DNA of 64,000 bases from a virus (IMGVR_UViG_649989924_000003), one strand, 5' to 3'. Counted from the stretch's first letter, positions 18,363 to 63,991 are shown. Program-made: numbers and translations. The notes: generated by a model not told the origin, from the sequence alone.

Positions 18363-18635
18363 TTAATTTAAATATCCATCTTTTCTTAACAGTTCTTCCT
18401 TAATTGAGTAATAGTCTTCAATAGTTGGTAAAAGCAGCTTTATTCTTCTGGCTTTTAGCTTTTTTACATAAATGTATTTTTCTCTTTCCCAGCTAGGGGT
18501 AGCAACCCATTCTCTTAAGGACATAAGCATTTCTTTATCAGTTGAGCATATATTTACAACTATGAATTCTTTTTTTTGGAATAATTGATTGAGTTTCAAG
18601 ATTTTCCTCCTCCCCATTTCATTAAGAGATAACAA
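18363..18635 (-). CDS. Hypothetical protein (likely TTG start near 18600)
   Basis: GGAGGAGG RBS before TTG-AAA-CTC. Confidence 0.5.
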   Translation of the reverse strand: MLSLNEMGRRKILKLNQLFQKKEFIVVNICSTDKEMLMSLREWVATPSWEREKYIYVKKLKARRIKLLLPTIEDYYSIKEELLRKDGYLN

Positions 18636-18698
18636 AAGGGCTACATCCTCATAAAGATAGCCCTGCCTCGTATATAATTACATATCTATTTTATCATA
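18631..18698 (-). promoter_or_regulatory. Promoter-ACGA-terminator leader, copy 1
   Basis: TGATAAAAT-16 nt-ACGAG-GGGCTATC/GTAGCCC-TTTTG. Confidence 0.75.
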
Positions 18699-18757
18699 TA
18701 TTTATATATATGTGCTTATCATTGACGAAAAAAAGACTGAAACAAATTTTCAGTCTT

Positions 18758-19345
18758 CTATAAATTAAAATTCACTGTAAATTTATGCCCTTTTTGAACA
18801 CCAAATCCTGTCACAATTTCTCCACTTGCTATAACACTATATGTTCTGTTTGAGTTCTTAAATGAACCTGTATAACTTCTCATAAGAAAGAAGACACTGG
18901 AATTTAATCGCTGCACAGTAGCAGATGGCTTGTAGCTTGTATCAAAGGTTCTTCCGTTGTATTTATATGAAAGTGTCATTCTATTTTTATTTTCATAGAA
19001 ATTAACAGATTTTGTTCCAAAAGTTGACCTTGCATTTGTGTTGATTTGTACTTCGGCATTGTCATTATAAGAAATAGCTTTAATAAATTCACTCTTAAAG
19101 ATTTCAACATCAGTATCTAAGATATTTTGAATATATTCATCATATGTTTTTTTATATATAGACTGGTAATTCTCAGTCTTATACTGTTCTTCCGTTAAAA
19201 TCATAAAATGAGTATGATATTCTTTATTGATTTCTGCTAAAGCATTTTCATAGTTGCTCAAGTTTGGAGTCTCCAAAGCTTTTACATTAAATGTAAATAA
19301 GCAAACAATCAAAAAACTAGTCAGCAATACGCAAATCTTTTTCAT
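18758..19345 (-). CDS. Secreted hypothetical protein
   Basis: Signal peptide ending VKA. Confidence 0.6.
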   Translation of the reverse strand: MKKICVLLTSFLIVCLFTFNVKALETPNLSNYENALAEINKEYHTHFMILTEEQYKTENYQSIYKKTYDEYIQNILDTDVEIFKSEFIKAISYNDNAEVQINTNARSTFGTKSVNFYENKNRMTLSYKYNGRTFDTSYKPSATVQRLNSSVFFLMRSYTGSFKNSNRTYSVIASGEIVTGFGVQKGHKFTVNFNL

Positions 19346-19718
19346 AATTCTTTTCTCCCTTTTCCTGCATTTCTGTAATCTGTTGCTTGTTATATTCCTT
19401 AAGTATCAAATTAATAAAATTTTTATACTCTTGCAACCCTAAATCTGTGATTTCATAGAAAGTTCTAGGAATTATTTTACTACCACTTAAAATCCTAGCT
19501 GCATCTCTATTTTCTTTACTAACATGAAATTTCACATCAATAATGTATCCTTCTTCTTTTAATTTCTTTGTATTATGACTCATAGTCCCATCAGAACACT
19601 GACAGACCTTCTTAAGATTAGCATAACTCATTGGTGAGACCGATAAACTAGCTAGCATTTGAATACGTATAGCAGAGTTAAAAACATCAGGGACACTTGC
19701 AATATTTTTTTCAACCAT
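19317..19718 (-). CDS. Winged-helix transcriptional regulator (ArsR/HTH_34-like)
   Basis: AIRIQMLASL...SDGTMSHNTKKLKEEGYI...RTFYEITDLG. Confidence 0.75.
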   Translation of the reverse strand: MVEKNIASVPDVFNSAIRIQMLASLSVSPMSYANLKKVCQCSDGTMSHNTKKLKEEGYIIDVKFHVSKENRDAARILSGSKIIPRTFYEITDLGLQEYKNFINLILKEYNKQQITEMQEKGEKNYEKDLRIAD

Positions 19719-20401
19719 TATATCTCCACCTTTCTATGTTTCATTGATAAAATAATAGTAAATAAAGAAACAATTATAATAATCCCATTATCTCTTAGTA
19801 CTACTAACATATCATTTAAAGATAATAATGTACCTGATAATTCAGAACTGTTCATTATTATGCTAAAAACATATGTCATAAGTGCAACAAAAATAATATT
19901 CATCCCTATACTTATAAAAGCAGTCTTATCCTTAAGATAATTAAATAGAAAAATAAGTGCAATCATATTTATAACAATATCAAATGGGAAAGTATTGTAT
20001 AGCTGTAAAAGAACAGTAAAATTCATATAATATGATAGAGGAAACAGCATTCTTAATAATGAGAAAAGAACTATAAAAATAGAAAATACTTTTAAGAAAT
20101 CCTTTTCCTTCATTGTCATACTTGTTCTTAGTAAGCATATATAATAAATTGCAATAACAACTGTGAATAAAGCCAATGTTATCAGTCGAGTTATTTCAAA
20201 TCCATCAAAACCATCTGTTATGTAAAGTGACATAAAATACTGAGTTGAAAAATAAATAATAAGACTTGCTATAATATAACTTATTAGCCATACCCCCAGA
20301 ACTCTTTTTACCCCTCTTACAGGAACTTCACCATCTAAAACATATCTTGTATCTATTTTGGCCTGCTGTATTTTATTTATGATATCCTCAGGGTTTTTCA
20401 T
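19718..20401 (-). CDS. Multi-pass membrane protein
   Basis: About six hydrophobic segments; coupled to the wHTH gene. Confidence 0.65.
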   Translation of the reverse strand: MKNPEDIINKIQQAKIDTRYVLDGEVPVRGVKRVLGVWLISYIIASLIIYFSTQYFMSLYITDGFDGFEITRLITLALFTVVIAIYYICLLRTSMTMKEKDFLKVFSIFIVLFSLLRMLFPLSYYMNFTVLLQLYNTFPFDIVINMIALIFLFNYLKDKTAFISIGMNIIFVALMTYVFSIIMNSSELSGTLLSLNDMLVVLRDNGIIIIVSLFTIILSMKHRKVEI

Positions 20402-20420
20402 CCAATATCACGCCCCCTTT

Positions 20421-22355: not shown

Positions 22356-22712
22356 TCATTTCCCCTCAACAATTCTATAAGCTTCCGTTGCTTTTACTCT
22401 ATTGCCCACATCATACCCCTTATACTTCAGTTGAAATTCCTGTAACTCCTCAATAGAAAATAAATACCTTTGCCCAACTTTAATTGCTTTAAGTATACCA
22501 ACCTCCCTAAGCATTGAAATATTTTGTCTTGAGGTCTTTAAAAGAGTAGCAACCTCCTCTTGAGTAAGCATCTCGAGTTTTTTAAATGCATCTACTTTAT
22601 CCTCTATTCTCAGTGATTCAATCTGCAAAGCAATTTTATCCTGCTTTTTCACAAACTTAATAGTTCCACTAAATTCTACATCATAATCCTCTAAAATATC
22701 TTCCAAATTCAT
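22356..22712 (-). CDS. Excisionase/MerR-like HTH_17 DNA-binding protein
   Basis: LTQEEVATLLKTSRQNISMLREVGILKAIKVGQRYLFS. Confidence 0.75.
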   Translation of the reverse strand: MNLEDILEDYDVEFSGTIKFVKKQDKIALQIESLRIEDKVDAFKKLEMLTQEEVATLLKTSRQNISMLREVGILKAIKVGQRYLFSIEELQEFQLKYKGYDVGNRVKATEAYRIVEGK

Positions 22713-29163: not shown

Positions 29164-29231
29164 AGTTTTTTCTCCTTTCTATAATTCCAAAAAAGAAAGG
29201 ACTTGTAACCTTTCAATAGTGAAAAGACTAT

Positions 29232-29747
29232 CTACTCGTTAAGTCCTGGTTCTTGTACAGAATCTTCCAGTTCATCTAAGACACTGCTCATCTCATCGTG
29301 CACATAGCGAATAGTCTCTTGTGTTTCTTTAATTTCTTTTTCTATTTCTTTTGACTTTTGCTGTACAGAAGATGTTGACGCCTTCTGCTTAGCTATCTCA
29401 TTTTCAATTTCTTGTCTTCTGGTGTCTATTTCTGCTTTTGTGGCTGAAAATTCAGCATTTCTTTTTTCAACTTCATTTTTCATATCCTGATAATTTTTCT
29501 GGAAATCATCAAAAGTTGGTATAGTTGGCTCTACTTTCTGCTGGGTCAAAGCATTTGCTATTGTTTGATTAATACCCCAATAAGCAAAACCCAAGAATAA
29601 AATCAGAACACAAAACCCCATAACAATAGCTATACGTTTCTTAGTTTTCTTAGACTGGTGATTCTTTTGCTCAGTAATAATAGTATTTTCTTGTAGTTCT
29701 TTATTTAATTGATTTTGTTCCATAAATAAATCTCCCTTCTGCCTCAA
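29232..29747 (-). CDS. Membrane-anchored coiled-coil protein
   Basis: One TM segment followed by a long heptad-rich region. Confidence 0.6.
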   Translation of the reverse strand: MRQKGDLFMEQNQLNKELQENTIITEQKNHQSKKTKKRIAIVMGFCVLILFLGFAYWGINQTIANALTQQKVEPTIPTFDDFQKNYQDMKNEVEKRNAEFSATKAEIDTRRQEIENEIAKQKASTSSVQQKSKEIEKEIKETQETIRYVHDEMSSVLDELEDSVQEPGLNE

Positions 29748-31480: not shown

Positions 31481-31566
31481 CTCCTCCTTTATAGACACAA
31501 AAAAAGACAAATCAATAACTTTGTCTTTTGTAGGTCTCGTATATACTTACATATATATTTTACCAC
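31481..31566 (-). promoter_or_regulatory. Promoter-ACGA-terminator leader, copy 2
   Basis: TGGTAAAAT-16 nt-ACGAG...AAAGACAAA/TTTGTCTTT-TTTTG-AGGAGG. Confidence 0.75.
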
Positions 31567-31695
31567 ATATCTTTAAAGATGTGCTGTCCTGTTTACATAT
31601 TTATCAGTGTCTTGATAACAGTCTTGCGTTTCAACCAAAAAACAGAGGAATGTGTTATAATAGACCAGTACATAAATTTATCGGAGGTGAATACA

Positions 31696-32669: not shown

Positions 32670-32820
32670 TATAGCACTTTTTTATTTGCTATAAGTATAC
32701 TAACAAAAGAAATTAGCGATTAGTGGTATAATTAAAGAGTATATATACGATTAAAATGAGAATTATCTCAATTGGATTCATCATCGAATACCAATGTAGA
32801 AATTATGAAAGGACTATAAT

Positions 32821-33201: not shown

Positions 33202-33254
33202 GTGAGCTTACTTGTTGTCTGATAGCAAAAAAAGAGGCTCTTGTCCTCTTTCGT

Positions 33255-34164: not shown

Positions 34165-34246
34165 TCCTCCTTATTTTTGTTAAACAAAAAAGGTCTATTC
34201 AAAAGAATAGACTTACTCGTTTATGTTTACATCTCTATTTTATCAT
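34165..34246 (-). promoter_or_regulatory. Promoter-ACGA-terminator leader, copy 3
   Basis: TGATAAAAT-16 nt-ACGAG-GTCTATTC/GAATAGAC-T6G-AGGAGG. Confidence 0.8.
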
Positions 34247-34332
34247 AATTTAGCCTGACACATATTTTAATTCTTTTCAGTTTTTCTTAAGTTATCTAGA
34301 ACAATACCAGAATTTTTTGTAATGCTTACCGC

Positions 34333-34536
34333 TTAATCATCACTCAATCTTTGCCAACTAATAATCTCACCCATATGATGACAAGGTGCAAGATATATAT
34401 TTTTACTTATTTCTTCTCTTAATTTTTCTATATCTAGTTCAGATTTAATTTCTTTAGGATATTCAAGAATTATTGTATGAATATAATTATCCTTAAAAGA
34501 TTTTCCATTTTCAATATAAGCTACATAATATTTCAT
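34333..34536 (-). CDS. Hypothetical protein
   Basis: ORF with RBS. Confidence 0.5.
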   Translation of the reverse strand: MKYYVAYIENGKSFKDNYIHTIILEYPKEIKSELDIEKLREEISKNIYLAPCHHMGEIISWQRLSDD

Positions 34537-34650
34537 ATTTTCTTCTCCTTTATGCGCGCACGTTCTTGCGCTTAATATCTATTTCTTCTAAAATCACCAC
34601 TCCTACATTGCGATGTTAACAGATTAGTTTTTCACTTTTGTCATTTTACT

Positions 34651-34727
34651 TCCTCCTTTTGTACAAAAAAACGAGGCATCTCGAAGATACATCGTTCTCG
34701 TTTTAACTGACATATATAGTATATCAT
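34651..34727 (-). promoter_or_regulatory. Promoter-ACGA-terminator leader, copy 4
   Basis: TGATATACT-16 nt-ACGAG, hairpin, T-run, AGGAGG. Confidence 0.75.
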
Positions 34728-34777
34728 ATATCTATAAGTATGTAATATCCTGCTTCACATTACCATATATTTATCAA

Positions 34778-35431
34778 TTATAAGTGACCATAATCCAATA
34801 TCATATATTGAATTGGTCCACCAACAACCCTTTTATTCTCTTCAAAAAGCTTTGCTTCTTCATGAATAGCATTTTCAATCGTCTGTATACATTTATTTAA
34901 TGAATCCTTTAATGATAAATTTAAATCAGCCTGATGAAACTGACTTCTTGCAATAATTTTATGGTATTCTTCTCCCATAAATAATATGTCACTTTCGTTA
35001 TCATTCCATATTTTCAAGTAATATCCTTTTCCATGTAATACATCCAAACTTGTCATCATCTTTTTGTATATGAATACACATGAAATATCTTTACATTCAT
35101 TATCACAAGTTGGTTTTACATAATAAGCAAATTGATTAATTTGTAGCTGCAGTTCCTCAAATGATGTAATATCACTAAAGAAATGAGGAAGAATATCATT
35201 TATATCATCTGCTTGACTGTTATCTTCTATCTTAATTACTTGATTGAGTCCTACGATTCCAATATATAGTTCATTTTCTTTCATACAATGAATTTTCTTA
35301 TAGTTTCCATCTTTCAACCCTCTGCTTGGATAAGTGCTATAAGAATCTGATGCAATTATAACACCATTATTTGTTTTCATTGCAACCATAAAAGACATAT
35401 AATTTCGTCTCCTTTCTAATTCCTGATACAT
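34778..35431 (-). CDS. Ntn hydrolase paralog F (upstream ATG 35431; core ATG 35398, Ser1)
   Basis: M-SFMVAMK...IASDS...KKIH...IVG; VVGGPIQ. Confidence 0.75.
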   Translation of the reverse strand: MYQELERRRNYMSFMVAMKTNNGVIIASDSYSTYPSRGLKDGNYKKIHCMKENELYIGIVGLNQVIKIEDNSQADDINDILPHFFSDITSFEELQLQINQFAYYVKPTCDNECKDISCVFIYKKMMTSLDVLHGKGYYLKIWNDNESDILFMGEEYHKIIARSQFHQADLNLSLKDSLNKCIQTIENAIHEEAKLFEENKRVVGGPIQYMILDYGHL

Positions 35432-37783: not shown

Positions 37784-37787
37784 TTTT

Positions 37788-37868
37788 CTCCTCCTTGTTA
37801 AATAAAAAAGAATCTACAAAATTGCAGATTCCTTCTTCTCGTATAATATTACATTTCAATTATACCAT
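37788..37868 (-). promoter_or_regulatory. Promoter-ACGA-terminator leader, copy 5
   Basis: TGGTATAAT-16 nt-ACGAG-GAATCTGC/GTAGATTC-T-run-AGGAGG. Confidence 0.8.
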
Positions 37869-37975
37869 AGATTTTCTATTATAAATTCACTCATAATATA
37901 TTCCCTATTGAGACAATATATGGTAAAATAAATCACATTATACTGATAAATGTAACTACATATATAAATGAAAGG

Positions 37976-38959: not shown

Positions 38960-39065
38960 ATAATTCTAAATCAAAGAAAAAACCACTTGTACTAACCAAG
39001 TGGTTTTTATGAAATCTTCATTATACAATCTGCTAAATGCTAATTCTGCTTCTGTTATAAAGCAT

Positions 39066-39580: not shown

Positions 39581-39660
39581 TCTTTTCTGTAAAACAAAAA
39601 AGAATCTGCTCTTTAGAAACAGATTCTTCTCGTTTAACTTTACTATTCCATTATATCATA
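39581..39660 (-). promoter_or_regulatory. Promoter-ACGA-terminator leader, copy 6
   Basis: TGATATAAT-16 nt-ACGAG-AGAATCTG/CAGATTCT-T-run. Confidence 0.8.
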
Positions 39661-39692
39661 TTTAGACTTGTTATGGCGCAGATTATCATCCT

Positions 39693-40971: not shown

Positions 40972-41058
40972 TTCCTCCTTCTTTTGTGTAAAACAAAAAA
41001 GAACCCGCTTCTTAGAAACAGATTCTTCTCGTTTAACTTTACTATTCCATTATATCAT
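40972..41058 (-). promoter_or_regulatory. Promoter-ACGA-terminator leader, copy 7
   Basis: TGATATAAT-16 nt-ACGAG-AGAATCTG/CGGGTTCT (G-U pairs)-T-run-AGGAGG. Confidence 0.8.
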
Positions 41059-41139
41059 ATATTGATAGTTTTATAATGCCTTCCAATTTAATAAAATGAT
41101 TTGAAATAACAAAGAATAGTTAAATAAATTGAATAATAT

Positions 41140-41793: not shown

Positions 41794-41875
41794 TCCTCCT
41801 TTTCATGACATAGAAAAGAATCTACAAAAATGCAGATTCCTTTGTTTCGTATATATTACATCTCAATTATATCAT
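41794..41875 (-). promoter_or_regulatory. Promoter-ACGA-terminator leader, copy 8
   Basis: TGATATAAT-15 nt-ACGAA; hairpin nearly identical to copy 5. Confidence 0.8.
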
Positions 41876-41883
41876 AATATTCA

Positions 41884-43952: not shown

Positions 43953-44110
43953 AATTATTTCTCCAGCTTTTTGTGGAGCCCGCCTCCTTTTTTGTAAAAT
44001 AAAAAACTACACTAGAAATATAAAATCCTCCTATATATAGTTTTTCTCTTTTGATAGATTTTTCTAATTTTTTGGATAAACACTCATAATTCTTATGAAA
44101 ATAATACTTT

Positions 44111-44193
44111 CCTCCTTTTTTGTAAAACAAAAAATGGAACCCAAAAAAATATGAGTTCCATAATCGTTATAGTTTACTACTATATTATATCAT
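44111..44193 (-). promoter_or_regulatory. Promoter-ACGA-terminator leader, copy 9 (its RBS tail is repeated at about 43982-44005)
   Basis: TGATATAAT-16 nt-ACGAT-GGAACTC/GGGTTCC-T6G-AGGAGG. Confidence 0.75.
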
Positions 44194-44333
44194 AACTAAA
44201 GGATTTCGCGTTTTTACCAACTTATTAGCCAATTCATTTTTGCTAATTGAGTTATGTTGAAAAAAGTTGAATAAAGTCATATAATTATTTATATATACTC
44301 AATTAAAATAAGAGATTAAAGGGCAAATATAAA

Positions 44334-44714: not shown

Positions 44715-45360
44715 ATTTTGAATAATCCATCACTGCATACTGAACCTTTCCTCCAACTGCAAGATAGCCTTGAGAGTAAAGGTTTTTTTCTAGTTTTATT
44801 TCAGTTTCCACAGACTGAATCCCTTTCTCCAAGACTATATCAAGTGAATTAAACATATCTGAGCGAGTGAAACTATTTAAGCCATTTATCATATGCTCCT
44901 CTTCGCCAGAAGTGATAATATCCAATTCATTATCATTGTAAAATTCAATAGATGGAATCTTATGGTGAATGATATCTACTCTATACAATGTCTTTTTGTA
45001 GGCAACCATCAGGCGCATATCCTTGCATTCTCTATCACAGGTAATTTTGAGGAATTCAGAGTATTTTTTCACAATATCAGCAATATTTTTATCTGATACA
45101 GCCCTAAAATATTCCAATAATGTCCCATTAATATCCACCAATTCTTTCCCTACATATACCTGATTGATTCCTGTGATTCCAACGCATAAAACATTTGGTA
45201 TTAAACAGTGGATTTTTTTGTAATTGGAGTCTTTTAGGGTTCTATCAGGATATGTACTATATGAATCTGAAGCCATGACAATTCCATTCACATTCTTAAT
45301 AACAACCATATATGACATAAAGTTTCTTCTATCCCCTTTCTTGTTTGTCATTTCTAACAT
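44692..45360 (-). CDS. Ntn hydrolase paralog G (upstream ATG 45360; core ATG 45318, Ser1)
   Basis: M-SYMVVIK...MASDS...KKIH...ITG; AVGGKVQ; closest to paralog F. Confidence 0.75.
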   Translation of the reverse strand: MLEMTNKKGDRRNFMSYMVVIKNVNGIVMASDSYSTYPDRTLKDSNYKKIHCLIPNVLCVGITGINQVYVGKELVDINGTLLEYFRAVSDKNIADIVKKYSEFLKITCDRECKDMRLMVAYKKTLYRVDIIHHKIPSIEFYNDNELDIITSGEEEHMINGLNSFTRSDMFNSLDIVLEKGIQSVETEIKLEKNLYSQGYLAVGGKVQYAVMDYSKFNENCIQ

Positions 45361-45368
45361 ACAACACC

Positions 45369-45385
45369 CTCCAGCTGTATAAGCT
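45369..45385 (-). promoter_or_regulatory. 5' hairpin-GGAG leader of paralog G
   Basis: AGCT-TATAC-AGCT-GGAG after TG-ATATACT. Confidence 0.7.
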
Positions 45386-45473
45386 AATATCAGTATATCA
45401 CAATAAAAAAATAGTGCACATGATGTATGTACACTATCTATATTTTATCTTTCTCGTATATTAAAGGTTTTTC

Positions 45474-45971
45474 TTAGTCATAATAAAATCCTTCAACAAA
45501 CCCTAAATGAGATTCCCACTCGAAATCATTCGGCAATGCATATGCGTATTTATTTTTTATCTCATTAATCATTTCTGATTCATTAATATAGCCAAAAGAT
45601 AGATTTTTGTAGTTAATTTTATTTTCATATAATAAAAATAATGAAAAATAATAATGTTCATTATCTTCTTCTCCATTCATGGCTGTAAAGACTACCTCAT
45701 CTCTATCTCCATATAGAGAAAATTGTCCCTCATAAACAACAATATCTGAATCATATAAAGAATTTCCAATATTATTTAAAAAATCATCAATACTGTATTC
45801 TTGTTCATCTTTTCCAATAAATATTTTTTTATTCATATTCTCAAATTCTTTTAAATCAATATATGGAAATAATTCTTTTGAATATTTCACATGTAGTAAA
45901 AAATACCTCATTTCTTCTTTGTTTAATGCTATCCCGTATTGTGGGTTTATATAATTTACATCTACAGACAT
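45474..45971 (-). CDS. Hypothetical protein
   Basis: ORF with RBS. Confidence 0.6.
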   Translation of the reverse strand: MSVDVNYINPQYGIALNKEEMRYFLLHVKYSKELFPYIDLKEFENMNKKIFIGKDEQEYSIDDFLNNIGNSLYDSDIVVYEGQFSLYGDRDEVVFTAMNGEEDNEHYYFSLFLLYENKINYKNLSFGYINESEMINEIKNKYAYALPNDFEWESHLGFVEGFYYD

Positions 45972-46261
45972 TAAAAGTCCTCCTTATCTAATATAAGTGT
46001 TTGATAATAAGTATATTTATCGCCAACAATATGACTTCGAACTTCATTTAAAAGTTTTTTACATTGACTACTTTCTTGGGTTGAATCATGAAGAGATTCT
46101 AAACATATATCAATTGTATCTAATATTGTTGGTTCGAAATTATTGTTGATATCATAAGAAACAATTTGAACGTCATTATATAATTCTTCAATTTGATTAT
46201 CAAGAATATATTGTTTTATTTTTTCCCAAGATTGAATTGAAGAGGTTTCTCTTGCAATCAT
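45971..46261 (-). CDS. Hypothetical protein
   Basis: ORF, translationally coupled. Confidence 0.55.
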   Translation of the reverse strand: MIARETSSIQSWEKIKQYILDNQIEELYNDVQIVSYDINNNFEPTILDTIDICLESLHDSTQESSQCKKLLNEVRSHIVGDKYTYYQTLILDKEDF

Positions 46262-46431
46262 ACATTCACATCCTTTTTGTATTTGTTTTTTCTTATATAT
46301 TTCTTTTTATTCTTTTGTGGAGAAGGGATTCTATGTTTCCCTTCCACAAATAAAGCATACTTTTCCTCATCAGTATATTTTGTTAATTGTTTTTGACGAG
46401 GTTTTATATGGATATTTTTATTATCCTTCAT
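46258..46431 (-). CDS. Small basic protein (57 aa; not in the ORF track)
   Basis: MKDNKNIHIKPRQKQ...HRIPSPQKNKKKYIRKNKYKKDVNV; ATGA overlap with the next gene. Confidence 0.55.
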   Translation of the reverse strand: MKDNKNIHIKPRQKQLTKYTDEEKYALFVEGKHRIPSPQKNKKKYIRKNKYKKDVNV

Positions 46432-46437
46432 ATTTCA

Positions 46438-47142
46438 TCAACCCTTTCGTGACCTTGAATCTAATTCCTGACAGAATCTTTTATATTCTTCTTTAAGTTC
46501 TAAATATTTTTTAGCTTTTTCAAGTGTCTTTTTGAAATTGGATATAGATTCTTCATCTACTGATTCAGATTCCTCATACTTTTTAAGATTTTTCTCAAAT
46601 TCCTCTAAATCCCAAAATGTATGGAAAGAACAATTACCTGAAATGAGATAATTTAAACCTTGCAATATCCTTAATTGAGATTTTTTAGCTCCATTTTTTA
46701 CTAAATATGAACCACTTGGATATTTCCATTCAAATCCTAAATAGATATTGTTTATTTTATCAGCATCTTCATATTCCACATAGTCCCTTTTGGACACCTC
46801 ATGATAATCCTCAAGATTTCCCAAGAATGTAAATAAATGGAAATTACTCTCAGCAAGTACAGGTGATGTATTATAGTAATATTCACTGTATGCCTTACTA
46901 ATTGTATAAGCCCCACTTTCTGAGAATTGTTTGAGTTTTTTAATCGCATTTTCATAGTTGCAATACATGTCTATCTTATATGTATCTACCATATGAACTT
47001 TGCCTGTCTTTTGATTAAATACAGGTACAAAAAGTCCATAATGCTGGTCATATCCATTAATTCTATCTGTTGATGAACAGATTTTACTCGGATTGGCTTC
47101 ATAAATCCCTCCAAAAATCACTTTATTTCTCATATCTTCCAT
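46438..47142 (-). CDS. Hypothetical protein
   Basis: 234-aa ORF with RBS. Confidence 0.6.
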   Translation of the reverse strand: MEDMRNKVIFGGIYEANPSKICSSTDRINGYDQHYGLFVPVFNQKTGKVHMVDTYKIDMYCNYENAIKKLKQFSESGAYTISKAYSEYYYNTSPVLAESNFHLFTFLGNLEDYHEVSKRDYVEYEDADKINNIYLGFEWKYPSGSYLVKNGAKKSQLRILQGLNYLISGNCSFHTFWDLEEFEKNLKKYEESESVDEESISNFKKTLEKAKKYLELKEEYKRFCQELDSRSRKG

Positions 47143-47145
47143 TCC

Positions 47146-47403
47146 TTATTCCTCCTTCTCATAAACGACATAAATATATGCATCATCATTATCATATGTC
47201 ATAGCAATAATATTGTTACCAAAGTCAATCTCTTGCTGGATAACATCAACAAAATAATTTGGTCTCATATCATCCTTTTTATATTGCTTTATATATTGTT
47301 TTGTCTTTTTAACCGACTTTTCTTTAACTAGTTTAGGTAATGTTACTATTAGTACATCTGCTAACTGTTGGCCTTTGACTGTATCCCAAAAACTATTATT
47401 CAT
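47146..47403 (-). CDS. Hypothetical protein
   Basis: AAGGAG RBS before MNNSFWD. Confidence 0.55.
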   Translation of the reverse strand: MNNSFWDTVKGQQLADVLIVTLPKLVKEKSVKKTKQYIKQYKKDDMRPNYFVDVIQQEIDFGNNIIAMTYDNDDAYIYVVYEKEE

Positions 47404-47416
47404 TGTTTTTTCTCCT

Positions 47417-47857
47417 TTATAGTAATGATTTATTTTGAAATGATAAAATATTGTTATCTCCAACAATACAAAAATCAAGCAATTCAATCTGTAACATTTC
47501 ACCATATTTTTGAAGTTCCTTTGCTAATTGTTTGTCTTCCGCACTAGGACAAGTATCACCGTTCAGATGATTATGAACGCATATGAAACGATATGCATTA
47601 CATAAAACTAGACTTTTAAACATTTTCCTAGGAGTAACAATTTTAATATCTGATTCTCCTCCAAATACTTCAAACACCTCAATAATTCTATTTCTTGTAT
47701 CTAAGGCGAAAAGCATCATTACTTCTTTATGCTCTTCATTCATTTTTAATTTCTTTAAAAATACATCCTTAACATCATCTACTTCGTTAATCATTTTAGG
47801 ACCATATTTTTTGGCATCTTCTTTATAAACTTGATTCATAATACACCTCTTTTTCAT
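47417..47857 (-). CDS. Stand-alone RadC-like JAB domain protein
   Basis: KEVMMLFALD, CVHNHLNGDTCPSAED, IELLDFCIVG. Confidence 0.85.
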   Translation of the reverse strand: MKKRCIMNQVYKEDAKKYGPKMINEVDDVKDVFLKKLKMNEEHKEVMMLFALDTRNRIIEVFEVFGGESDIKIVTPRKMFKSLVLCNAYRFICVHNHLNGDTCPSAEDKQLAKELQKYGEMLQIELLDFCIVGDNNILSFQNKSLL

Positions 47858-47963
47858 GTTTCTTATGGAGCCTTTTTATCAAAAAACGACTTAGTGTTTC
47901 TATATTACCTTCCAGAAAGATATAATTTACAACCTTCCTTTAATTGAATCTCTCTTCCAAAAC

Positions 47964-48371
47964 TCAACCCATATACACGCATTCTCCTTTTCTTTTTCCA
48001 TTCACAAAAGATATATACTGTCCTCCAATATAATGAATCTCGTTGCAAGCATACTCATCTAAAATTCTCTCAATTTCTGGAAACTTAGATTTATCATCAG
48101 TTATTATTGTCAAACTATTTGTTGGAAATCTATCATATTTAAGACGATTTTGACAATTTTTACACCTACAATGTTTAATAAATTCATAGTGTGGAATGGA
48201 ATAGTCCATTTTCCCCTCTTTTGTTAATCCATAACAAATCCTATAAGTGTAACGATTGTACGTCCCAAATTCTGCTCCTGTATTTACCCTATTCATATAG
48301 TTTTCACCTTTCTCGTGATTGTTTTTTAATTGAATAATCATATTCCTTATAAGTAATAAAGGTTGGTTCAT
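47964..48371 (-). CDS. Hypothetical protein
   Basis: ORF; probable start MNRVNTG. Confidence 0.5.
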   Translation of the reverse strand: MNQPLLLIRNMIIQLKNNHEKGENYMNRVNTGAEFGTYNRYTYRICYGLTKEGKMDYSIPHYEFIKHCRCKNCQNRLKYDRFPTNSLTIITDDKSKFPEIERILDEYACNEIHYIGGQYISFVNGKRKGECVYMG

Positions 48372-48741
48372 AGCCTGTATAATAGCAATAATCCACTTTA
48401 CATAGTGTTTTAATGGATTCTTGAGGGATATCTAAAAACTCAGAAAACAACTTCTGATACTCATCAAATTCCTCATCTGCAAGTTTTTCAGTAGAACACC
48501 ATTCCTCACATTTTTTCCCATAAGATTCTTCCAATACAAAATCAATATAATCATTGTCTCTATCAAATCCTAGCATAAACTGCTTATATATTGGATTTTC
48601 TGAGTATTCTGGATGTGATTCCATAATATAATCAATCAAATCCTGATAGTTATTTTCTCCATAAATATAATTTGGCAATAACTCTCCTAGCAATAATGGG
48701 TTTCTGTATCTTATTGCTTTTACATATTTATAATCTGACAT
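48304..48741 (-). CDS. Hypothetical protein
   Basis: AGGAGG RBS before MSDYKY. Confidence 0.55.
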   Translation of the reverse strand: MSDYKYVKAIRYRNPLLLGELLPNYIYGENNYQDLIDYIMESHPEYSENPIYKQFMLGFDRDNDYIDFVLEESYGKKCEEWCSTEKLADEEFDEYQKLFSEFLDIPQESIKTLCKVDYCYYTGYEPTFITYKEYDYSIKKQSRER

Positions 48742-48746
48742 TTCTT

Positions 48747-48831
48747 TCCTCCTTCTTTTGTTGAAAACAAAAAAGAATCTGCCCCTTGTGAACAGATTCA
48801 TCTCGTTTATATTACTCTTTAATTGTACCAT
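48747..48831 (-). promoter_or_regulatory. Promoter-ACGA-terminator leader, copy 10
   Basis: TGGTACAAT-15 nt-ACGAG-GAATCTG/CAGATTC-T-run-AGGAGG. Confidence 0.8.
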
Positions 48832-48877
48832 ATTCTCTTTAAATAATGAGAAATATTTCCGACTATACTATATAAAG

Positions 48878-49348
48878 TTAACCCTTGTTGTACCAATGAT
48901 AGAATTCCTGCAAATGTATTGGATATATATTATCAGTCTTAAACAACTCCTGATAAATTCTCTCTATTTGATTACAGACAACTTCAGGAACAGGAATTTG
49001 TTTCAGGTATTGATTAAGAATCTTATTATCATCATTATCACCTACAAATAAATCCTCATAATTTCTTGTTAACTCCACTATATAAATCAGTTTAATATAC
49101 GCATTATTGCTATCAATCAGCAAGGTAATCTGATTATCACCATCTTTATCATAATCATAAAGATAATCACTGCCAATGAATCCACTCTCTAACAGTACTT
49201 TTGCAGAACTATCCTTGCACCAGACATAGAATTCACTTAATGAAGTTAAATTACAATATTTTTTATAATACTCTCTGATATTCTGATTATACAATCCTAT
49301 AGGAACATCTATCATCCATCCAAAAAATCTGTCACATTGAACATTCAT
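48878..49348 (-). CDS. Hypothetical protein
   Basis: ORF with RBS. Confidence 0.6.
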   Translation of the reverse strand: MNVQCDRFFGWMIDVPIGLYNQNIREYYKKYCNLTSLSEFYVWCKDSSAKVLLESGFIGSDYLYDYDKDGDNQITLLIDSNNAYIKLIYIVELTRNYEDLFVGDNDDNKILNQYLKQIPVPEVVCNQIERIYQELFKTDNIYPIHLQEFYHWYNKG

Positions 49349-49354
49349 TTTATT

Positions 49355-49430
49355 TCCTCCTTCACAACAAAAAAGAAGACCAATAGATAGTCTTCTTCAC
49401 TCGTATAATTTCATAGTTTTATTGTAACAT
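49355..49430 (-). promoter_or_regulatory. Promoter-ACGA-terminator leader, copy 11
   Basis: TGTTACAAT-16 nt-ACGAG-AAGAAGAC/GTCTTCTT-T-run-AGGAGG. Confidence 0.8.
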
Positions 49431-49570
49431 ATTTTTCCATTATGCATAAAAGACTCGCATAAAGCAAAAATATAAGTGTGCATTCTTCCTTTGTCATAAA
49501 TATCATTTGTTGTTATCAACATACTCTCTTTATCTCTTCATGAAAACTAAGAGTATTCATCATCTATCTC

Positions 49571-50314: not shown

Positions 50315-50624
50315 AATAAATCCTCCTACAAACATTTTATCATACCCAATTGAGTATGTAAATACATTTCTACTCAATTGGGTATGTTGTTTTAAGTAAT
50401 ATAAAAAAAGCTGAAACAAATCAAATTCTAGATAAATCTGTTTTCTCTAATAACTACTGATAGTCCTGATAAAGTATCTATAACATAGTCTGCATTGCTT
50501 CGCTTTTTGAAAAGTGAAACTCCTCAATTTATGATATATTCCTATGCTTTCCAGAAATAAAAAATAAATATTTTTTTTATGTGTACACTCAAGTCATGCT
50601 TGAATTTACACCTGATTTATGACA

Positions 50625-50894
50625 AAATAAAACTACGCAGAAAAGTCATTACTCTGCGTAGAGGTGAATTAGCCTTTGGCTTGCAGGATAAAACCTGCCT
50701 TAAAGAAAATGTTACCAAGTATTCTATTCATTGTTTTTGTAGATGTACTTGAATGCTTGGCAACAGAAAATACGTCACTTATTACTACAATTGTTTTCAC
50801 AAGCATTGTGGATGTGACTATCAAAGTTGTCTCATATTTTTGGAGACATGAGCCATAATAGGCATGGGAGCGAAAGCTCCTTTTTTCATGCTCT
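50625..50894 (-). ncRNA. Putative antisense antitoxin RNA
   Basis: TGATATAAT at 50901-50909 pointing left; CTACGCAG/CTGCGTAG-TTTTATTTT terminator at about 50661-50624. Confidence 0.5.
50676..50858 (+). CDS. Small hydrophobic peptide, putative type I toxin
   Basis: Own promoter (TTGAAT-17-TG.CAAAAT), a 5' hairpin next to the SD GAGGTG, two hydrophobic stretches, and a terminator at 50867-50886. Confidence 0.55.
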   Translation: MACRIKPALKKMLPSILFIVFVDVLECLATENTSLITTIVFTSIVDVTIKVVSYFWRHEP

Positions 50895-50931
50895 ATAACT
50901 ATTATATCATAATTTAAATAATATATGATTC

Positions 50932-52452: not shown

Positions 52453-52534
52453 TCTCCTTTCAACAAAAAAAACTGTACTTCTGAATGAAATACAGTTTTT
52501 TTCTTCGTATATATTTACATTTATATTATATCAT
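52453..52534 (-). promoter_or_regulatory. Promoter-ACGA-terminator leader, copy 12
   Basis: TGATATAAT-16 nt-ACGAA-ACTGTA/TACAGT-T-run-AAGGAG. Confidence 0.8.
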
Positions 52535-52551
52535 ACCTTACAATTAAAATA

Positions 52552-53229
52552 TCAATTTAATTCTTTTTCAGTTTCCTCTAAAACCCCCATAAATTCCTCA
52601 TCATCCTTTTCAGGATAAAGAATCATAAAAGCTTCCTTAAGGTTTCTTTGAAGAATCAATTCATAAAAATTGAGTGCAGCATGGATAATAGAATCAATCT
52701 TTTTAGCATCTCTTAATACCTTCAAGGTTTGCTTATCATCATCAAATTCTATAACGACTAATGGACACTCCCATCCTCTTTGCATCCCACTAGGATAATA
52801 ATCAGGATAATGATAGGGTTCAATGAGTTTATTAAGGGTTTCAATTGTTGGTTTTCTAATATTCCATTCCCCATGAATAAATGGTGAATTGAAATTGACA
52901 GTATTTCCACCCTCTGGATAATCATGATAAGCTTTTTGATAACGTAAAATCTGATAGATATCATAGGCTCTTTTTGCAATAAATGGAGTATCTATATTCC
53001 AAATGCCTAAAGAAATGTTAAAATCACTTCTAGCTAAGTGTGGAATACAAATATCTCTTAGCTTCTTCAAGTTTTTTATAAGATATGAGCATCGAAGGTC
53101 ATAGAATGAATACTGGTATCCATAAATTTTTATTGTTTCTTCATATTGCCCACATAAAACTCTTGAATATAAGTCCAAAGCATTTAATATGTGATTTAAT
53201 TCATCATAACTATATGTTTTTTCTCTCAT
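52552..53229 (-). CDS. Hypothetical protein
   Basis: ORF with RBS. Confidence 0.6.
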   Translation of the reverse strand: MREKTYSYDELNHILNALDLYSRVLCGQYEETIKIYGYQYSFYDLRCSYLIKNLKKLRDICIPHLARSDFNISLGIWNIDTPFIAKRAYDIYQILRYQKAYHDYPEGGNTVNFNSPFIHGEWNIRKPTIETLNKLIEPYHYPDYYPSGMQRGWECPLVVIEFDDDKQTLKVLRDAKKIDSIIHAALNFYELILQRNLKEAFMILYPEKDDEEFMGVLEETEKELN

Positions 53230-53315
53230 AAATCCTCCTATATTTGTGCTTGCAGTTCATTGAATTGAGTAAAAATATAATTCTTTCCAATACCACCAAA
53301 TTTTATAGTTATATT

Positions 53316-53621
53316 TTAATCTCCATTTCTATTTTTGCCAACAACAGCAAATGAAGTGGCTGCTGTCTTATATTTATATCCATTGCTATATGCAACTTCT
53401 CTAAGTTTCTGAAAACTAGATAACTCCGCCTTTTTCATATTGAGTCCATCAATATCTGCTTCTAATAAATGTATATCATCTTCTAGCTTTTGTTTATGTA
53501 TATTGCTTGAAGCCAGATATGAATTTGTTATAGTCATGCCAAAAACAAATAATATAGATGAAACTATGAATATCTTTTTTGTAAATCTTGTAAATCTGCA
53601 CCCTTTCTTCTTTCTTTTCAT
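53316..53621 (-). CDS. FtsL-like cell-division protein homolog
   Basis: Basic cytoplasmic tail, one TM segment, leucine heptads, KLREVAYSNGY. Confidence 0.55.
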   Translation of the reverse strand: MKRKKKGCRFTRFTKKIFIVSSILFVFGMTITNSYLASSNIHKQKLEDDIHLLEADIDGLNMKKAELSSFQKLREVAYSNGYKYKTAATSFAVVGKNRNGD

Positions 53622-53629
53622 ATTCTATT

Positions 53630-53697
53630 CTCCATAAAGAAAAAAAGCCTAGCAACAGCTAGCCTTCATTTCGTTTCATATATATTTATTTTATCAT
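53630..53697 (-). promoter_or_regulatory. Promoter-ACGA-terminator leader, copy 13
   Basis: TGATAAAAT-13 nt-ACGAA-AAGGCTAGC/GCTAGGCTT-T-run. Confidence 0.75.
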
Positions 53698-53775
53698 ACA
53701 ATTAACTTATTGTATGGATTTCTTTTTTTAGATTCTATTTCTTGTTCTTATTTAATAACCTTTCCAGTTTTCCAT

Positions 53776-55283: not shown

Positions 55284-55363
55284 TCCTCCTTCTACAACAA
55301 AAAACTACTTCCTTTTGGAAATAGTCTTCTTATCGTTATAATATTACACTTATATTGTAGCAT
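55284..55363 (-). promoter_or_regulatory. Promoter-ACGA-terminator leader, copy 14
   Basis: TGCTACAAT-17 nt-ACGAT, hairpin, T6G, AGGAGG. Confidence 0.75.
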
Positions 55364-55396
55364 AATTTGTTTATATTCACTGGAATAAGTCTATCT

Positions 55397-56240: not shown

Positions 56241-56320
56241 TCCTCCTTCTGCAACAAAAAAGACCACATTTCCATGTAGTCTCTCATTGCTCGTATATAT
56301 TTACATTTCTATTTTACCAT
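56241..56320 (-). promoter_or_regulatory. Promoter-ACGA-terminator leader, copy 15
   Basis: TGGTAAAAT-16 nt-ACGAG, AGAC/GTCT stem, T-run, AGGAGG. Confidence 0.8.
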
Positions 56321-56399
56321 AGATTTAGGTATTTAGAACTCCTTCTATCATTCATATTCCTAAAAAAGACATATCATTTAAGACATGTCTTTAATCGTT

Positions 56400-57871: not shown

Positions 57872-57945
57872 AATTTTTCTCCTTATATTTCATTATTTTA
57901 TTTCCAGTCTAATACGTCTAATAGCCAAACTATCATAAAGTTTCA

Positions 57946-58149
57946 TCACTTATCTTTATCCTCACTGTTCTTTACAAGAATTGCGACATAAATATCATTT
58001 GTTACCAGATAACAGCCACTTGCTGATTTTCCAGCAACTTGAATGGCACTGCTTGTAGAAGAAACTGTCCATCCATCTGCTAAGTACTTATTGACTTTAT
58101 TCTCAAAATGATATTCATTATTGTCTTTAATAACTTTAATTTTTTCCAC
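57946..58149 (-). CDS. Hypothetical protein
   Basis: ORF with RBS. Confidence 0.55.
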   Translation of the reverse strand: MEKIKVIKDNNEYHFENKVNKYLADGWTVSSTSSAIQVAGKSASGCYLVTNDIYVAILVKNSEDKDK

Positions 58150-59390: not shown

Positions 59391-59466
59391 CCTCCTTCTT
59401 ATCAAAAAAGCGTACCTCATCTGAGATACACTTTTTTCGTTTATATTTACTCTTTTATTCTATCAC
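59391..59466 (-). promoter_or_regulatory. Promoter-ACGA-terminator leader, copy 16
   Basis: TGATAGAAT-16 nt-ACGAA; 12-bp stem with G-U pairs; AGGAGG. Confidence 0.8.
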
Positions 59467-59479
59467 AGATTTTTTATTT

Positions 59480-61095: not shown

Positions 61096-61314
61096 CTAAA
61101 TTTCAATAATTCTAAGACTTTTCATTGCTGTTTTGTACTTTAAGCCTTGATATCCCTTTTTGATTTCATTTTTAAGACATTTTTTAGCCTCTGTCTTTTT
61201 TGTAGATTCTAAAATCCCTGTAATTGTACCTTCAACTTCTGGCGTAAATGTGTAAATAAATTGTTTCATTCTTATCACCAAATTTCCTTTCTGTTTTATT
61301 TTTCTCCTCAACAA
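61096..61314 (-). CDS. Hypothetical protein
   Basis: ORF; probable start MKQFIY. Confidence 0.5.
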   Translation of the reverse strand: MLRRKIKQKGNLVIRMKQFIYTFTPEVEGTITGILESTKKTEAKKCLKNEIKKGYQGLKYKTAMKSLRIIEI

Positions 61315-61378
61315 AAAAACTATTTTCTCTTTAGAAAATAGTCTCTTCTTCGGTTAATATACATTTATATTATATCAT
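61303..61378 (-). promoter_or_regulatory. Promoter-ACGA-terminator leader, copy 17 (CCGAA variant)
   Basis: TGATATAAT-15 nt-CCGAA-ACTATTTTC/GAAAATAGT-T-run. Confidence 0.75.
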
Positions 61379-61418
61379 ATATCTAAAGCCATGTACGCTC
61401 TTGTGTCATTATAGAAAA

Positions 61419-62258: not shown

Positions 62259-62401
62259 TATCCCTCCTTAAATATTTAATAATAAAAAGCCTATATCCTC
62301 ATCACTTCTGGATATAGACTAAAAACTTCTATGAAGATATTATATCATAATAGAGCTAGAATTGCTTATGATAGTTGTTGTTTGTAGTGAACTAAAACAT
62401 T

Positions 62402-63271
62402 CTATTTGTATTTTCCTTTCATAAGATGTACAGCAGTAATCCCACATGACGGATAATTTGAGCACACAATTACATCTCCATAGTTTGCCTTCATAGCACA
62501 TATTGAAGCACCACAAACAGGACATTTTTTTTGATAGTATTTAACAATTTCTGTTGGTTTTTTCATAGGAATATCAAGCATTTCTTCTAAGGTGATGGTT
62601 TTGCTTTCTTCTTTAATTTCCTCGTCTATTGGTTTGTTTAAAATGTCAGGTTGTACTGGTTGTACCTTCAGTAAACTTTTATTATACTCTTCTAAAACCA
62701 TATCTGTTATTTGTTCTGATATCTTTTCAAGAACTTTTTCTTTTGTTGTGAATATATCTTGAATATTTTTTGTTTTTGCTAAATCTATAACTAATATATC
62801 CTTATTAATATGTTTATTTTTATCCTTGAAGACTAGTTTAATCTTATATTCTTTATCCTTAATATAAATTGAAAAAGTTTTATTTTCCTTATTTACATTA
62901 CAGATTTTCATACAAGTTTTGGAATCAGTTATAGACTCTTTTTTTATTCTATCTGTTATATTTGGTAAAATGGTGAAAAACCTTATGTCATCCTGCATTA
63001 TTTCCAGACCCTCTACAACCCCTAATTCTTCCAATATATACCATGCAAGTTCAAGAATTTGCTCATTAGTCTCAAAATGACAGTGGTTATAGCTACTTTG
63101 ATGCCTAAAATAACTTCTTTCTTTTCCTTTAACTGCTTCTAAAGGACATTTACAGTAATCACAAATACAATTGCAATTTCTTTGAAATTCATTCTCTTTC
63201 AAATCACTTATAAATATATACTTATCACCTCTTCTACCATAGGCTATAGACTCTTTTTTCATTTCAATCAT
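62402..63271 (-). CDS. CoiA-like N-terminal zinc domain plus a C-terminal topoisomerase-type C4 zinc finger
   Basis: CDYCKCPL...YFRH; CPVCG...CSNYPSC. Confidence 0.6.
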   Translation of the reverse strand: MIEMKKESIAYGRRGDKYIFISDLKENEFQRNCNCICDYCKCPLEAVKGKERSYFRHQSSYNHCHFETNEQILELAWYILEELGVVEGLEIMQDDIRFFTILPNITDRIKKESITDSKTCMKICNVNKENKTFSIYIKDKEYKIKLVFKDKNKHINKDILVIDLAKTKNIQDIFTTKEKVLEKISEQITDMVLEEYNKSLLKVQPVQPDILNKPIDEEIKEESKTITLEEMLDIPMKKPTEIVKYYQKKCPVCGASICAMKANYGDVIVCSNYPSCGITAVHLMKGKYK

Positions 63272-63379
63272 CCTTTCAAACTTATTACCTTAATATAATC
63301 TTACATGAAAGCGCTTTTTTTATCAATATCCTAAGTGTAATAAAAAAAGACTCATTATGAGTCTTCGTTCGTAATCAGA

Positions 63380-63898
63380 TTAAAATAATAACTCACAATA
63401 AATTTCTTGTAATTCTCCTAAAGTCTTTTTATTCCTTAACAAATAAAGTTCTTCATCAATAAGGTTTTCTGTATTCAAATAATCTAAATTTAATCCCGCT
63501 AAATACACTAAGCCTAGACTAGGGATATACACATCCTCGACAACTTCTGATTGAATAATTGTCTTGTTGACAATATCAACAGGTATTTCTAGTGCTATAC
63601 CAGACATATTCTCACTGGAATAATCCAGAAATTCCTCAATATCTCCCTCATCTACCTCAATAGAAAACAGATAGATGTGTGGTGATGTTGAATGATTTAT
63701 AGCTGATGAGATTCTAGCACTGTCTATGGCTCTTCGTCTTGCATCCTGCTCATCTTCATACTTACTATCTGGCAATACATAATGAAAATAAACACTATCA
63801 TTATCAGATACGTACCATATCTTCTTTTCACATTTAAATCCCTCATCTAAAATTCTTAAACCATTCTCATAACTTGTTCCATGATAAACTCTTAACAT
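63380..63898 (-). CDS. Putative ADP-ribosyltransferase-fold protein
   Basis: N-terminal VYHGTS...ILDEGF typical of His-type ART folds. Confidence 0.45.
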   Translation of the reverse strand: MLRVYHGTSYENGLRILDEGFKCEKKIWYVSDNDSVYFHYVLPDSKYEDEQDARRRAIDSARISSAINHSTSPHIYLFSIEVDEGDIEEFLDYSSENMSGIALEIPVDIVNKTIIQSEVVEDVYIPSLGLVYLAGLNLDYLNTENLIDEELYLLRNKKTLGELQEIYCELLF

Positions 63899-63906
63899 TC
63901 CTTTCA

Positions 63907-63991
63907 CTCCTCCTCTTTTTGTAAGCAAAAAAAAGACATATCTGTTTGAGATATGTCTTCACTCGTATAAATTACATCTTTATTTTATCAT
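63907..63991 (-). promoter_or_regulatory. Promoter-ACGA-terminator leader, copy 18
   Basis: TGATAAAAT-15 nt-ACGAG-AGACATATC/GATATGTCT-T-run-GAGGAGG. Confidence 0.8.

Follow-up and report, generated by a model that had tools for sequence, protein, structure and literature searches.

We analysed a 64,000-nucleotide stretch of DNA from a virus (IMGVR_UViG_649989924_000003), hereafter the window, in which a leader of about 70 nucleotides (nt), made up of a promoter, an ACGA box, a terminator hairpin and a ribosome binding site (RBS), recurs in front of accessory gene cassettes. The window has a G+C content of 29-30%. Its first 17 kb hold a split NrdD and a T2SSE/Tad-type ATPase, and from about 17 kb to the window end nearly all genes are carried on the minus strand. 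Pfam scans of the roughly 70 window proteins left most cassette genes without a family match, and the original prediction that the leaders control host-takeover or anti-defence genes is therefore unproven. Genes with a family match included KAP NTPase, Fic, NADAR, a Toprim protein, NlpC/P60, YopX, RadC and DUF3990, and further genes encoded a Phd/ParE pair, a tyrosine recombinase, two proteasome-like Ntn hydrolases, a methyltransferase and an MBL-fold protein. The window resembles the accessory region of a large plasmid of conjugative or phage-like kind, and a megablast search of 20 kb against phage and plasmid collections returned no match.

The leader is real, strongly non-random and conserved. 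All 18 minus-strand copies reported earlier were present with the anatomy given for them, and in 18/18 the elements followed the order promoter, box, terminator, RBS. The pattern TGNTANAAT-N13-18-[AC]CGA matched 17 times on the minus strand and once on the plus strand as compared to 0.25 +/- 0.54 matches in dinucleotide shuffles; the 18th copy, which has TATACT as its -10, was missed by the pattern. Units were found by regular expression and folding, and MAFFT was unable to register hairpins of unrelated sequence. Relatives of the element were found through homologues of a conserved 478-amino acid (aa) protein (43-91% identity) and through strict DNA patterns, and 39 units from the window and relatives were aligned for positional conservation. 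The promoter consensus in this alignment was TRTGnTAnAAT, followed 6 nt on by G in 34/39 and T in 36/39 units, and then by T-A-W and an invariant CGA, with the sequence between GTAA and the box freely variable. GTAA near the predicted +1 had been anticipated and was borne out, the gap between the -10 and GTAA being 6 nt in 14/18 window copies. Information content was below 0.35 bit at each position from -40 to -6 relative to the TG, and this lack of conservation upstream of the -16 motif indicates that the promoter has no -35 element.

Taking the G as the inferred +1, the box starts at +8 to +12, the stem-loop never starts before +13 and the U-run ends at +42 to +54 (mean 48), with about 12-19 nt between the predicted start and the hairpin base. 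Core stems of the hairpins had 6-11 pairs and folding free energies (dG) of -4.4 to -12.1 with U-runs of 4-8, and whole leaders had a dG of -9.4 to -17.6 (z of -1.8 to -6.2 as compared to shuffles). On the transcribed strand a stable G+C-containing hairpin was directly followed by a U-run, as in intrinsic terminators, and the leader terminators were predicted to be as strong as operon-end terminators. Hairpin sequences were unrelated to one another, yet pairing was always kept. G-U accounted for 12% of hairpin pairs, and hairpin stability was greater in the coding than in the antisense orientation (mean -9.3 vs -7.1 kcal/mol; 62/86 units, Wilcoxon 3e-9), which points to selection on the transcript. 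The G expected after the T-run was frequent (about 60% of units) but not invariant, and was largely lost in the relative L056. A Shine-Dalgarno (SD) sequence lay no more than 30 nt past the U-run in 89/96 units, at a median distance of 7 nt. Rfam 15 gave 0 matches at the gathering threshold across the whole window. We rejected an extended stem in which the box C pairs with the G following the U-run, since this pairing was in register in only about 5/18 folds and since L056 conserves ACGA but not the G. Reading the promoter differently, with a second -10 at TATACG, with an ECF-like motif or with a T7-like TATACGA, was also set aside, as no conserved partner elements supported it.

The copies, all on the minus strand, vary in detail. 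The leader at 63924..63993 has the promoter, GTAA, ACGAG, hairpin and U8 and heads a 175-aa gene (63380-63907). Two exceptions described beforehand were correct: the copy at 61310..61380 has the box variant CCGA, and that at 53637..53699 has short spacing with the box 13 nt after the -10. ACGAT was present at 55296..55365, which heads a 74-aa open reading frame (ORF) and the MBL-fold gene, and at 44126..44195, which lies upstream of the conserved 478-aa gene and is followed by a second terminator-like hairpin (about 43996-44043) and then by an SD-adjacent hairpin. The -16 motif is TGTG at 59401..59468, which heads an operon of about eight ORFs, and the U-run is interrupted at 41809..41877 (TTTTCTAT). 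The copy at 31496..31568 heads a long operon running from 31476 to about 18758 (Toprim, NADAR, Fic, KAP NTPase and helix-turn-helix (HTH) genes). The copies at 34183..34248 and 39593..39661 head a 114-aa ORF with the YopX gene and a PNK-like gene respectively, and the copy at 40992..41060 is a close paralogue of those at 39593..39661 and 48766..48833. The TATACT copy lies at 34662..34729, and its SD is followed by a mini-ORF of 6 codons (MTKVKN*, 34624-34644, minus strand) with about 85 nt to the next gene (34333-34536); this mini-ORF could be a mini leader peptide or a gene remnant.

Partial units that the original prediction did not mention were also detected. A promoter and terminator without the box were found at 62285..62349 (minus strand, with an extended -10 promoter and RBS) and at 7525..7577 (plus strand, with RBS). 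A promoter with a correctly spaced ACGA box and no terminator lies at 32721..32752 (plus strand) upstream of a DUF4258 gene. A box and terminator without a promoter were found on the minus strand at 63342..63372, directly past the stop of gene 63380-63907, at 33227..33254, immediately past the YopX stop codon, and at 56362..56398. At 45405..45457 (minus strand) a promoter-less ACGAG is followed by a terminator about 20 nt downstream and then by a plain promoter without a box. ACGAG at 29189..29239 (minus strand), at a gene end and followed by a terminator, is a weaker case.

The position of the box was fixed relative to the promoter. In the window and relatives, 36/303 extended -10 matches had ACGA at an offset of 15-17, with start offsets 15, 16 and 17 accounting for 8, 22 and 6 cases and other offsets for 0-3 each (about 0.5 on average). 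Box and terminator also occurred together. Among promoters with a plausible downstream gene in the window and relatives, 73 had both, 12 the box only, 7 the terminator only and 54 neither (Fisher 2e-20), although motif-seeded loci inflate the first of these counts and about half of the box-only cases have 4-T terminators missed by our filter. Because of this inflation we recounted on units that had not been selected for the box. Among promoter and terminator units outside the seed pattern, at loci without DNA similarity to the window, 29/33 carried [A/C]CGA at the expected place. The box was further found without a promoter directly 5' of terminators, at 19/77 promoter-less terminators as compared to 8/139 control windows (25% vs 6%), and the distance from box to stem was 0-15 nt both here and in the leaders. 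The plain promoters at 45400, 57371, the toxin-antitoxin operon and 35474 had neither a box nor a downstream terminator. Together with the coupling of box and terminator this suggests two promoter classes, the box marking the class that is followed by a terminator. The box is thus under selection, phased to the promoter and statistically tied to the terminator. Both proteasome-like Ntn-hydrolase paralogues (34778-35431 and 44692-45360, minus strand; marginal PF00227 matches) are headed by plain promoters without box or terminator and so belong to the other promoter class.

The promoter-less units argue for recognition of the box in RNA or in non-template DNA, independent of sigma. Alternatively, these units are relics of truncated leaders, and the hairpin at 56362..56398 resembles that of the leader at 63924..63993. 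The box as a sigma-dependent pause element was rejected, as a T followed the box in just 13/88 units.

The order of elements at two loci indicates which transcripts the leader terminator acts on. At 56398/56319 and 18758/18696 the upstream gene is followed by a separate terminator, then by the promoter, the box and a second terminator. At the first the separate terminator is that of the promoter-less unit at 56362-56398, upstream of the leader at 56253..56322, which heads the methyltransferase gene; at the second it lies at about 18725-18758, upstream of the leader at 18631..18699. These sites suggest that the leader terminator acts on transcripts from its own promoter, and contradict the possibility, allowed for in the original prediction, that the hairpins merely terminate the upstream gene. 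A terminator followed by a promoter was seen in the window at 45439/45400 and 57427/57371, in both cases with a box-less promoter, and box-bearing promoters always had their terminator downstream. The conserved 478-aa gene had a terminator directly upstream of its RBS in 8/8 relatives examined, and in most of these a promoter was visible upstream of that terminator, 15 or 130 nt away. Even in the 130-nt leaders of L049 and L055 the terminator was still between promoter and RBS.

A short hairpin also lies between the SD and the start codon of the 478-aa gene (43953-43995, minus strand) and was found at the same position in L049 and L053-L057. Its arms co-vary (GGGCTCCA/TGGAG, GGGTCA/TGACC, GGTCCA/TGGAC, GGCTCAC/GTGAG, GGTCAC/GTGAC and GGGCCCA/TGGGC), and, as an element distinct from the ACGA leader, it may control translation. 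The 478-aa gene (42516-43952) and its 200-aa neighbour (41884-42486), both on the minus strand, had no Pfam match, and this pair was the sole block common to all relatives fetched through the region. A fold search with a model of the 478-aa protein (AlphaFold2 (AF2), predicted local distance difference test (pLDDT) 77) gave no match at E <= 0.001, with weak ParB-N/Noc-like rows at E of about 1.

The leader design was conserved in relatives at 43-54% protein identity. The relative L056 (46% identity) had eight units in 15 kb, L051, L073 and L065 had several units each, and orthologous hairpins of L051 and L073 differed by pair-preserving substitutions. Genes of the relatives included PcfJ, a topoisomerase with DUF3945, RtcB, RNA ligase and toxin-antitoxin pairs. 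The strict pattern was detected in 18 stretches of species-representative genomes, among which only a metagenome-assembled genome (MAG) of Massilimicrobiota merdigallinarum had several, on contigs of a related element. It was also detected in 84 metagenome-contig stretches, many of them from human gut and about half without DNA similarity to the window, with up to about 10 strict matches on one 137-kb contig. In the 2.2-Mb MAG, a related host genome, the loose motif matched 9 times as compared to 12 times in the reversed control, and the full anatomy was present in 3 matches, all on element contigs. This control-level frequency suggests that the unit is a feature of the element family and not a general host promoter, and the latter was rejected on this count. 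A loose motif scan of viral contigs gave 48 single matches without terminators, which we regard as chance promoters, and protein-seeded locus searches of genome and viral contigs found nothing.

Comparison of the window with L054 (478-aa protein 91% identical) demonstrated that synteny breaks at leaders. L054 has a 2-kb insertion between two similar leaders at 37781-37798, at the site of the copy at 37801..37870, a replacement at 40980 and a 720-bp insertion at 53626/53637. It also lacks the 4.7-kb segment 44067-48746, so that the leader corresponding to 48766..48833 directly heads the 478-aa gene. Joints at 52535/53324 and 56248/56400 were present in contigs of two independent DNA runs (X7 and X9), and at the first of these a 788-bp cassette indel in other strains abuts the promoter of the copy at 52462..52536. 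These junctions suggest that the leader marks cassette boundaries and that recombination between copies may reshuffle the genes. Site-specific or integron-like crossover at ACGA was rejected, as breakpoints lie at unit ends and fit homologous exchange between similar leaders. Presence or absence of cassettes varied among gut metagenome samples and L054 (788-bp deletion 52536-53323, 4.7-kb block 44067-48746, 653-bp insertion at 57943-57966). The cassette array is interrupted midway by a plus-strand tyrosine recombinase gene (37976-38959), which has a bidirectional terminator (38980-39006) on one side and the leader at 37801..37870 on the other and is kept in L054.

RNA datasets were searched as well. 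None matched a 10-kb query, and a 1.2-kb query was detected as small shares of two wastewater metatranscriptome runs. Two metatranscriptome contigs matched exactly, one of 151 nt (49318-49468) spanning the leader at 49366..49432 with promoter, terminator and gene start, and one of 137 nt (63276-63412) that includes the terminator at 63372. These contigs were not used as evidence because DNA carry-over is possible and neither ends nor strand are shown.

From this anatomy we tentatively favour a reading in which the leaders are promoter-proximal terminators gated by a trans-acting read-through factor. The anatomy with its statistics and conservation, the coupling of box and terminator and the breakpoints are observed, whereas we infer where transcription starts, that it terminates in vivo, and the factor itself with its nature and timing. 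A -35-less TRTG extended -10 promoter of the host sigma-A type would start RNA at the conserved G, and this RNA would carry WWW-[A/C]CGA-R near +10 to +13 before meeting a canonical intrinsic terminator. The order of promoter, terminator and RBS makes a terminated RNA of about 48 nt the expected default product, and the operon would be largely off. The roughly 12 nt before the hairpin leave no room for an antiterminator fold in cis, so that any relief would have to come in trans, and the stretch of about 12-19 nt upstream of the hairpin excludes a riboswitch, T-box, leader-peptide or alternative-fold attenuator. The factor would find its target through the box, which it could read in the nascent RNA directly 5' of the stem or, alternatively, in non-template DNA while the elongation complex is still early, and would let polymerase past the terminator. 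One factor could in this way open at least 18 operons (about 60 ORFs) together, for instance when the element enters a new host or is induced. That the element carries such a regulon throughout, with a single factor reading WWW-[A/C]CGA-R 5' of both leader and internal terminator hairpins and switching at least 18 units together, is possible but doubtful. A default short RNA, relief in trans and a box tied to the terminator thus remain from the original prediction, while the dedicated factor that it called for was not found among the window proteins.

Several observations weigh against gating by such a factor. No Q, AlpA, NusG-paralogue, ANTAR or CAT_RBD family was found by Pfam among the window proteins, which represent a 64-kb part of the element, and only generic HTH proteins were present. 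The related MAG G001 had no AlpA family (PF05930) and a single NusG, on a non-element contig. In some relatives the promoter and box are followed directly by the RBS (L049 at 3080 and 20073), and boxes without a terminator or without a promoter suggest that the box may serve something other than antitermination. A specific factor would have only four invariant bases to recognise, which is little, and 18 loading sites exceed the few that a processive antiterminator would require. Accessory genes might also be served well enough by strong promoters with a constitutive read-through of 5-30%. An HTH_17 protein encoded at 22356-22712 was compared to known proteins; a PDB sequence search gave nothing below E 0.1, and the single-sequence AF2 model (pLDDT 37) was too poor to compare.

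The alternative that survives best is a constitutive attenuator or insulator without a dedicated factor, which we consider somewhat unlikely. The hairpin would stop transcription from the upstream cassette and protect the 3' end of that mRNA, and a fixed fraction of local transcripts would read through, perhaps aided by the box or by sigma still bound at about +48. In the read-through mRNA a hairpin some 7 nt before the SD would stabilise the 5' region, and the unit would persist because it is portable and recombinogenic. This fits with the leader terminator being the sole terminator after the upstream gene in 14/18 cases, with the short distance from U-run to SD, with strain and relative breakpoints at leaders, with the lack of a factor among the window proteins or in the related MAG, and with the composite promoter/terminator junctions known from promoter-stem-loop (PeSL) cassettes (PMC2839356). 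However, a terminator upstream of the promoter would insulate without throttling, and that arrangement was never seen with a box. At the two sites that have a separate upstream terminator the second one would be redundant as an insulator. The leader terminators look strong, and an invariant, phased ACGA tied to the terminator is left unexplained.

It is unlikely that GTAA...WWWACGA, over +1 to +13, is instead the operator of an element-encoded repressor with the terminator as an independent damper. Such a repressor would imply zygotic induction, with a burst of expression on entry followed by shut-off, as for Reg576 of p576. The fixed phasing of both GT (34-36/39 units) and box to the -10 would suit a DNA site that is recognised jointly with the promoter. 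The window and relatives encode several small HTH proteins, and one repressor for several establishment promoters has precedent (PMC6294495). The GT-N8-AC site over +1 put forward in the original prediction did not hold up, however, as spacing varied from N7 to N9, that is by 2 nt, and no dyad or direct repeat was found. The box without a promoter directly 5' of terminators also argues against a repressor, the coupling of box and terminator is left unexplained, and the Reg576 heptamer was not enriched.

Quite improbable is a role of the box as a signal for RNA processing or stability, in which a host RNase Y-like or element endoribonuclease would cut ACG/A 5' of terminator hairpins. The cut would separate cassettes; upstream mRNAs would lose their 3' hairpin, and downstream mRNAs would keep a protective one at the 5' end. 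RNase Y prefers a G upstream of structure in AU-rich context. The position of the box just 5' of the stem in leaders and promoter-less terminators fits a cleavage site, and genes of the RNA-repair type (PNK-like, RtcB, RNA ligase, RlaP and NADAR) are plentiful in the elements. A cleavage site would not require tight phasing to the -10, however, and units with promoter, box and RBS but no hairpin exist. ACGA is also not avoided in coding sequence, with about 65 minus-strand occurrences as compared to 61 expected after removal of about 25 box copies. That the terminated RNAs of about 48 nt are themselves the product, as decoys or sponges, with downstream genes expressed by other routes, is very improbable: their near-constant predicted length (42-54 nt), common 5' end and U-tail would suit such a role, but the unrelated hairpin sequences offer no common target or protein surface beyond 4 nt, an SD and ORF follow about 7 nt after each unit, and most of these genes have no other visible promoter.

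If read-through is gated, as we tentatively propose, the leader, at about 70 bp, would be a compact, portable switch by which a common human-gut mobile element keeps dozens of unrelated accessory genes under single control. Such a switch would bear on how the cargo of large plasmids is silenced and then switched on after transfer, would point to a new antiterminator and would supply a minimal part for synthetic biology. In the more doubtful case of an element-wide regulon read by one factor, no shorter antitermination address would be known, and accessory or establishment genes in widespread Firmicutes elements of the human gut would have a general on-switch. The mundane reading, a leader that only attenuates and insulates, would still explain cassette shuffling in these elements. 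Targeted literature searches, including papers on leading regions and anti-defence, found no description of such leaders, and comparable designs are on record at one or two loci (lambda Q, AlpA) but not for a regulon that spans an element.

Two further features lie apart from the leaders. NrdD, an anaerobic ribonucleotide reductase, is split into two ORFs (1-2515, plus strand), and the end of the first is a weak match to an intein-splicing domain. A gap of 512 bp without minus-strand genes (50420-50931) holds an extended -10 promoter at 50909 that faces a small plus-strand ORF and a terminator (50866-50881).

Among known systems, the pLS20 family of Firmicutes conjugative plasmids likewise places one conserved regulatory sequence before several variable accessory operons, for which coordinated transient expression has been proposed. 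Attenuation in this family had been offered as an analogy, but the paper describes EGeRS1 regions of about 325 nt and makes no mention of terminators or attenuation. EGeRS1 (about 325-500 nt) lacks a constitutive promoter, nor has a terminator been described for it (PMC8708921), and the repressor Reg576 of p576 binds dual TTATCCC heptamers (PMC6294495). The leader unit is only about 70 nt, and TTATCCC occurred 4 times on the plus and 2 times on the minus strand of the window, none at leaders and without enrichment.

The PeSL cassettes of T4-type phages are composite promoter/stem-loop units (PMC2839356, PMC4122927). Like the leaders, they occur as dozens of units of about 70-100 bp with promoter, stem-loop terminator and SD between small, mostly orphan genes of hyperplastic regions, and indels and replacements between close relatives break at the units. 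The analogy therefore holds for cassette shuffling but not for the stem-loop, which in PeSL units is mostly upstream of, between the boxes of, or overlapping the promoter and from there stops only incoming transcription, whereas that of the leaders is always downstream of the start site. PeSL units also have no phased ACGA-type box, and they occur in other hosts and another type of element.

A terminator between promoter and gene that is overridden via a short cis element is shared with BglG/SacY/LicT-RAT, HutP, GlpP, PyrR, conAn, RfaH-ops and LoaP, and ops-type elements are found in many operon leaders. Unlike the box, RAT and HutP sites overlap the stem and are repeated or at least 25 nt long. 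One large RNA, conAn, acts with ConAn1 at the head of a single operon, unlike the 18 leaders. RfaH, LoaP and UpxY need a NusG paralogue; there was no NusG/KOW match among the window proteins, and the ops core was absent.

Lambda antitermination, named in the original prediction, is a close working analogy, although AlpA of Pseudomonas aeruginosa fits better. The lambdoid PR'/6S RNA/tR'/Q arrangement likewise combines a constitutive promoter, a short terminated RNA and genes opened by an antiterminator in the initial transcribed region. It differs in having one site per phage, processive action, a Q-binding element (QBE) with a sigma-dependent pause and a tR' about 190 nt downstream, and none of its defining cis elements was found in the leaders. 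The lambda pause element is AACGAT.

At the P. aeruginosa promoters PalpB and PPA0807 the intrinsic terminator begins 26 or 54 nt past the start site and precedes the first gene (PMC7969949, PMC9371919). Once loaded at the promoter, AlpA and Q bypass an intrinsic terminator, which in lambda lies about 190 nt downstream (PMC7969949, PMC9371919). The leaders differ from the AlpA system in that nothing is conserved upstream of the -16 motif, where AlpA has a binding element between -35 and -10, and in that the final T of AlpA's -10-like pause element is rare after the box, with no other conserved -10-like hexamer. They also differ in having at least 18 targets compared to 2, in their Gram-positive hosts, and in that the window proteins yielded no member of the AlpA family. 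ACGA, the core of the box, also occurs within the AlpA pause element CACGAT, a lead and not a match. As in the AlpA system, which is off by default and relieved by a small element-type protein loaded at the promoter, the terminator of the leaders lies between promoter and first gene in all copies, and more than one operon is addressed.

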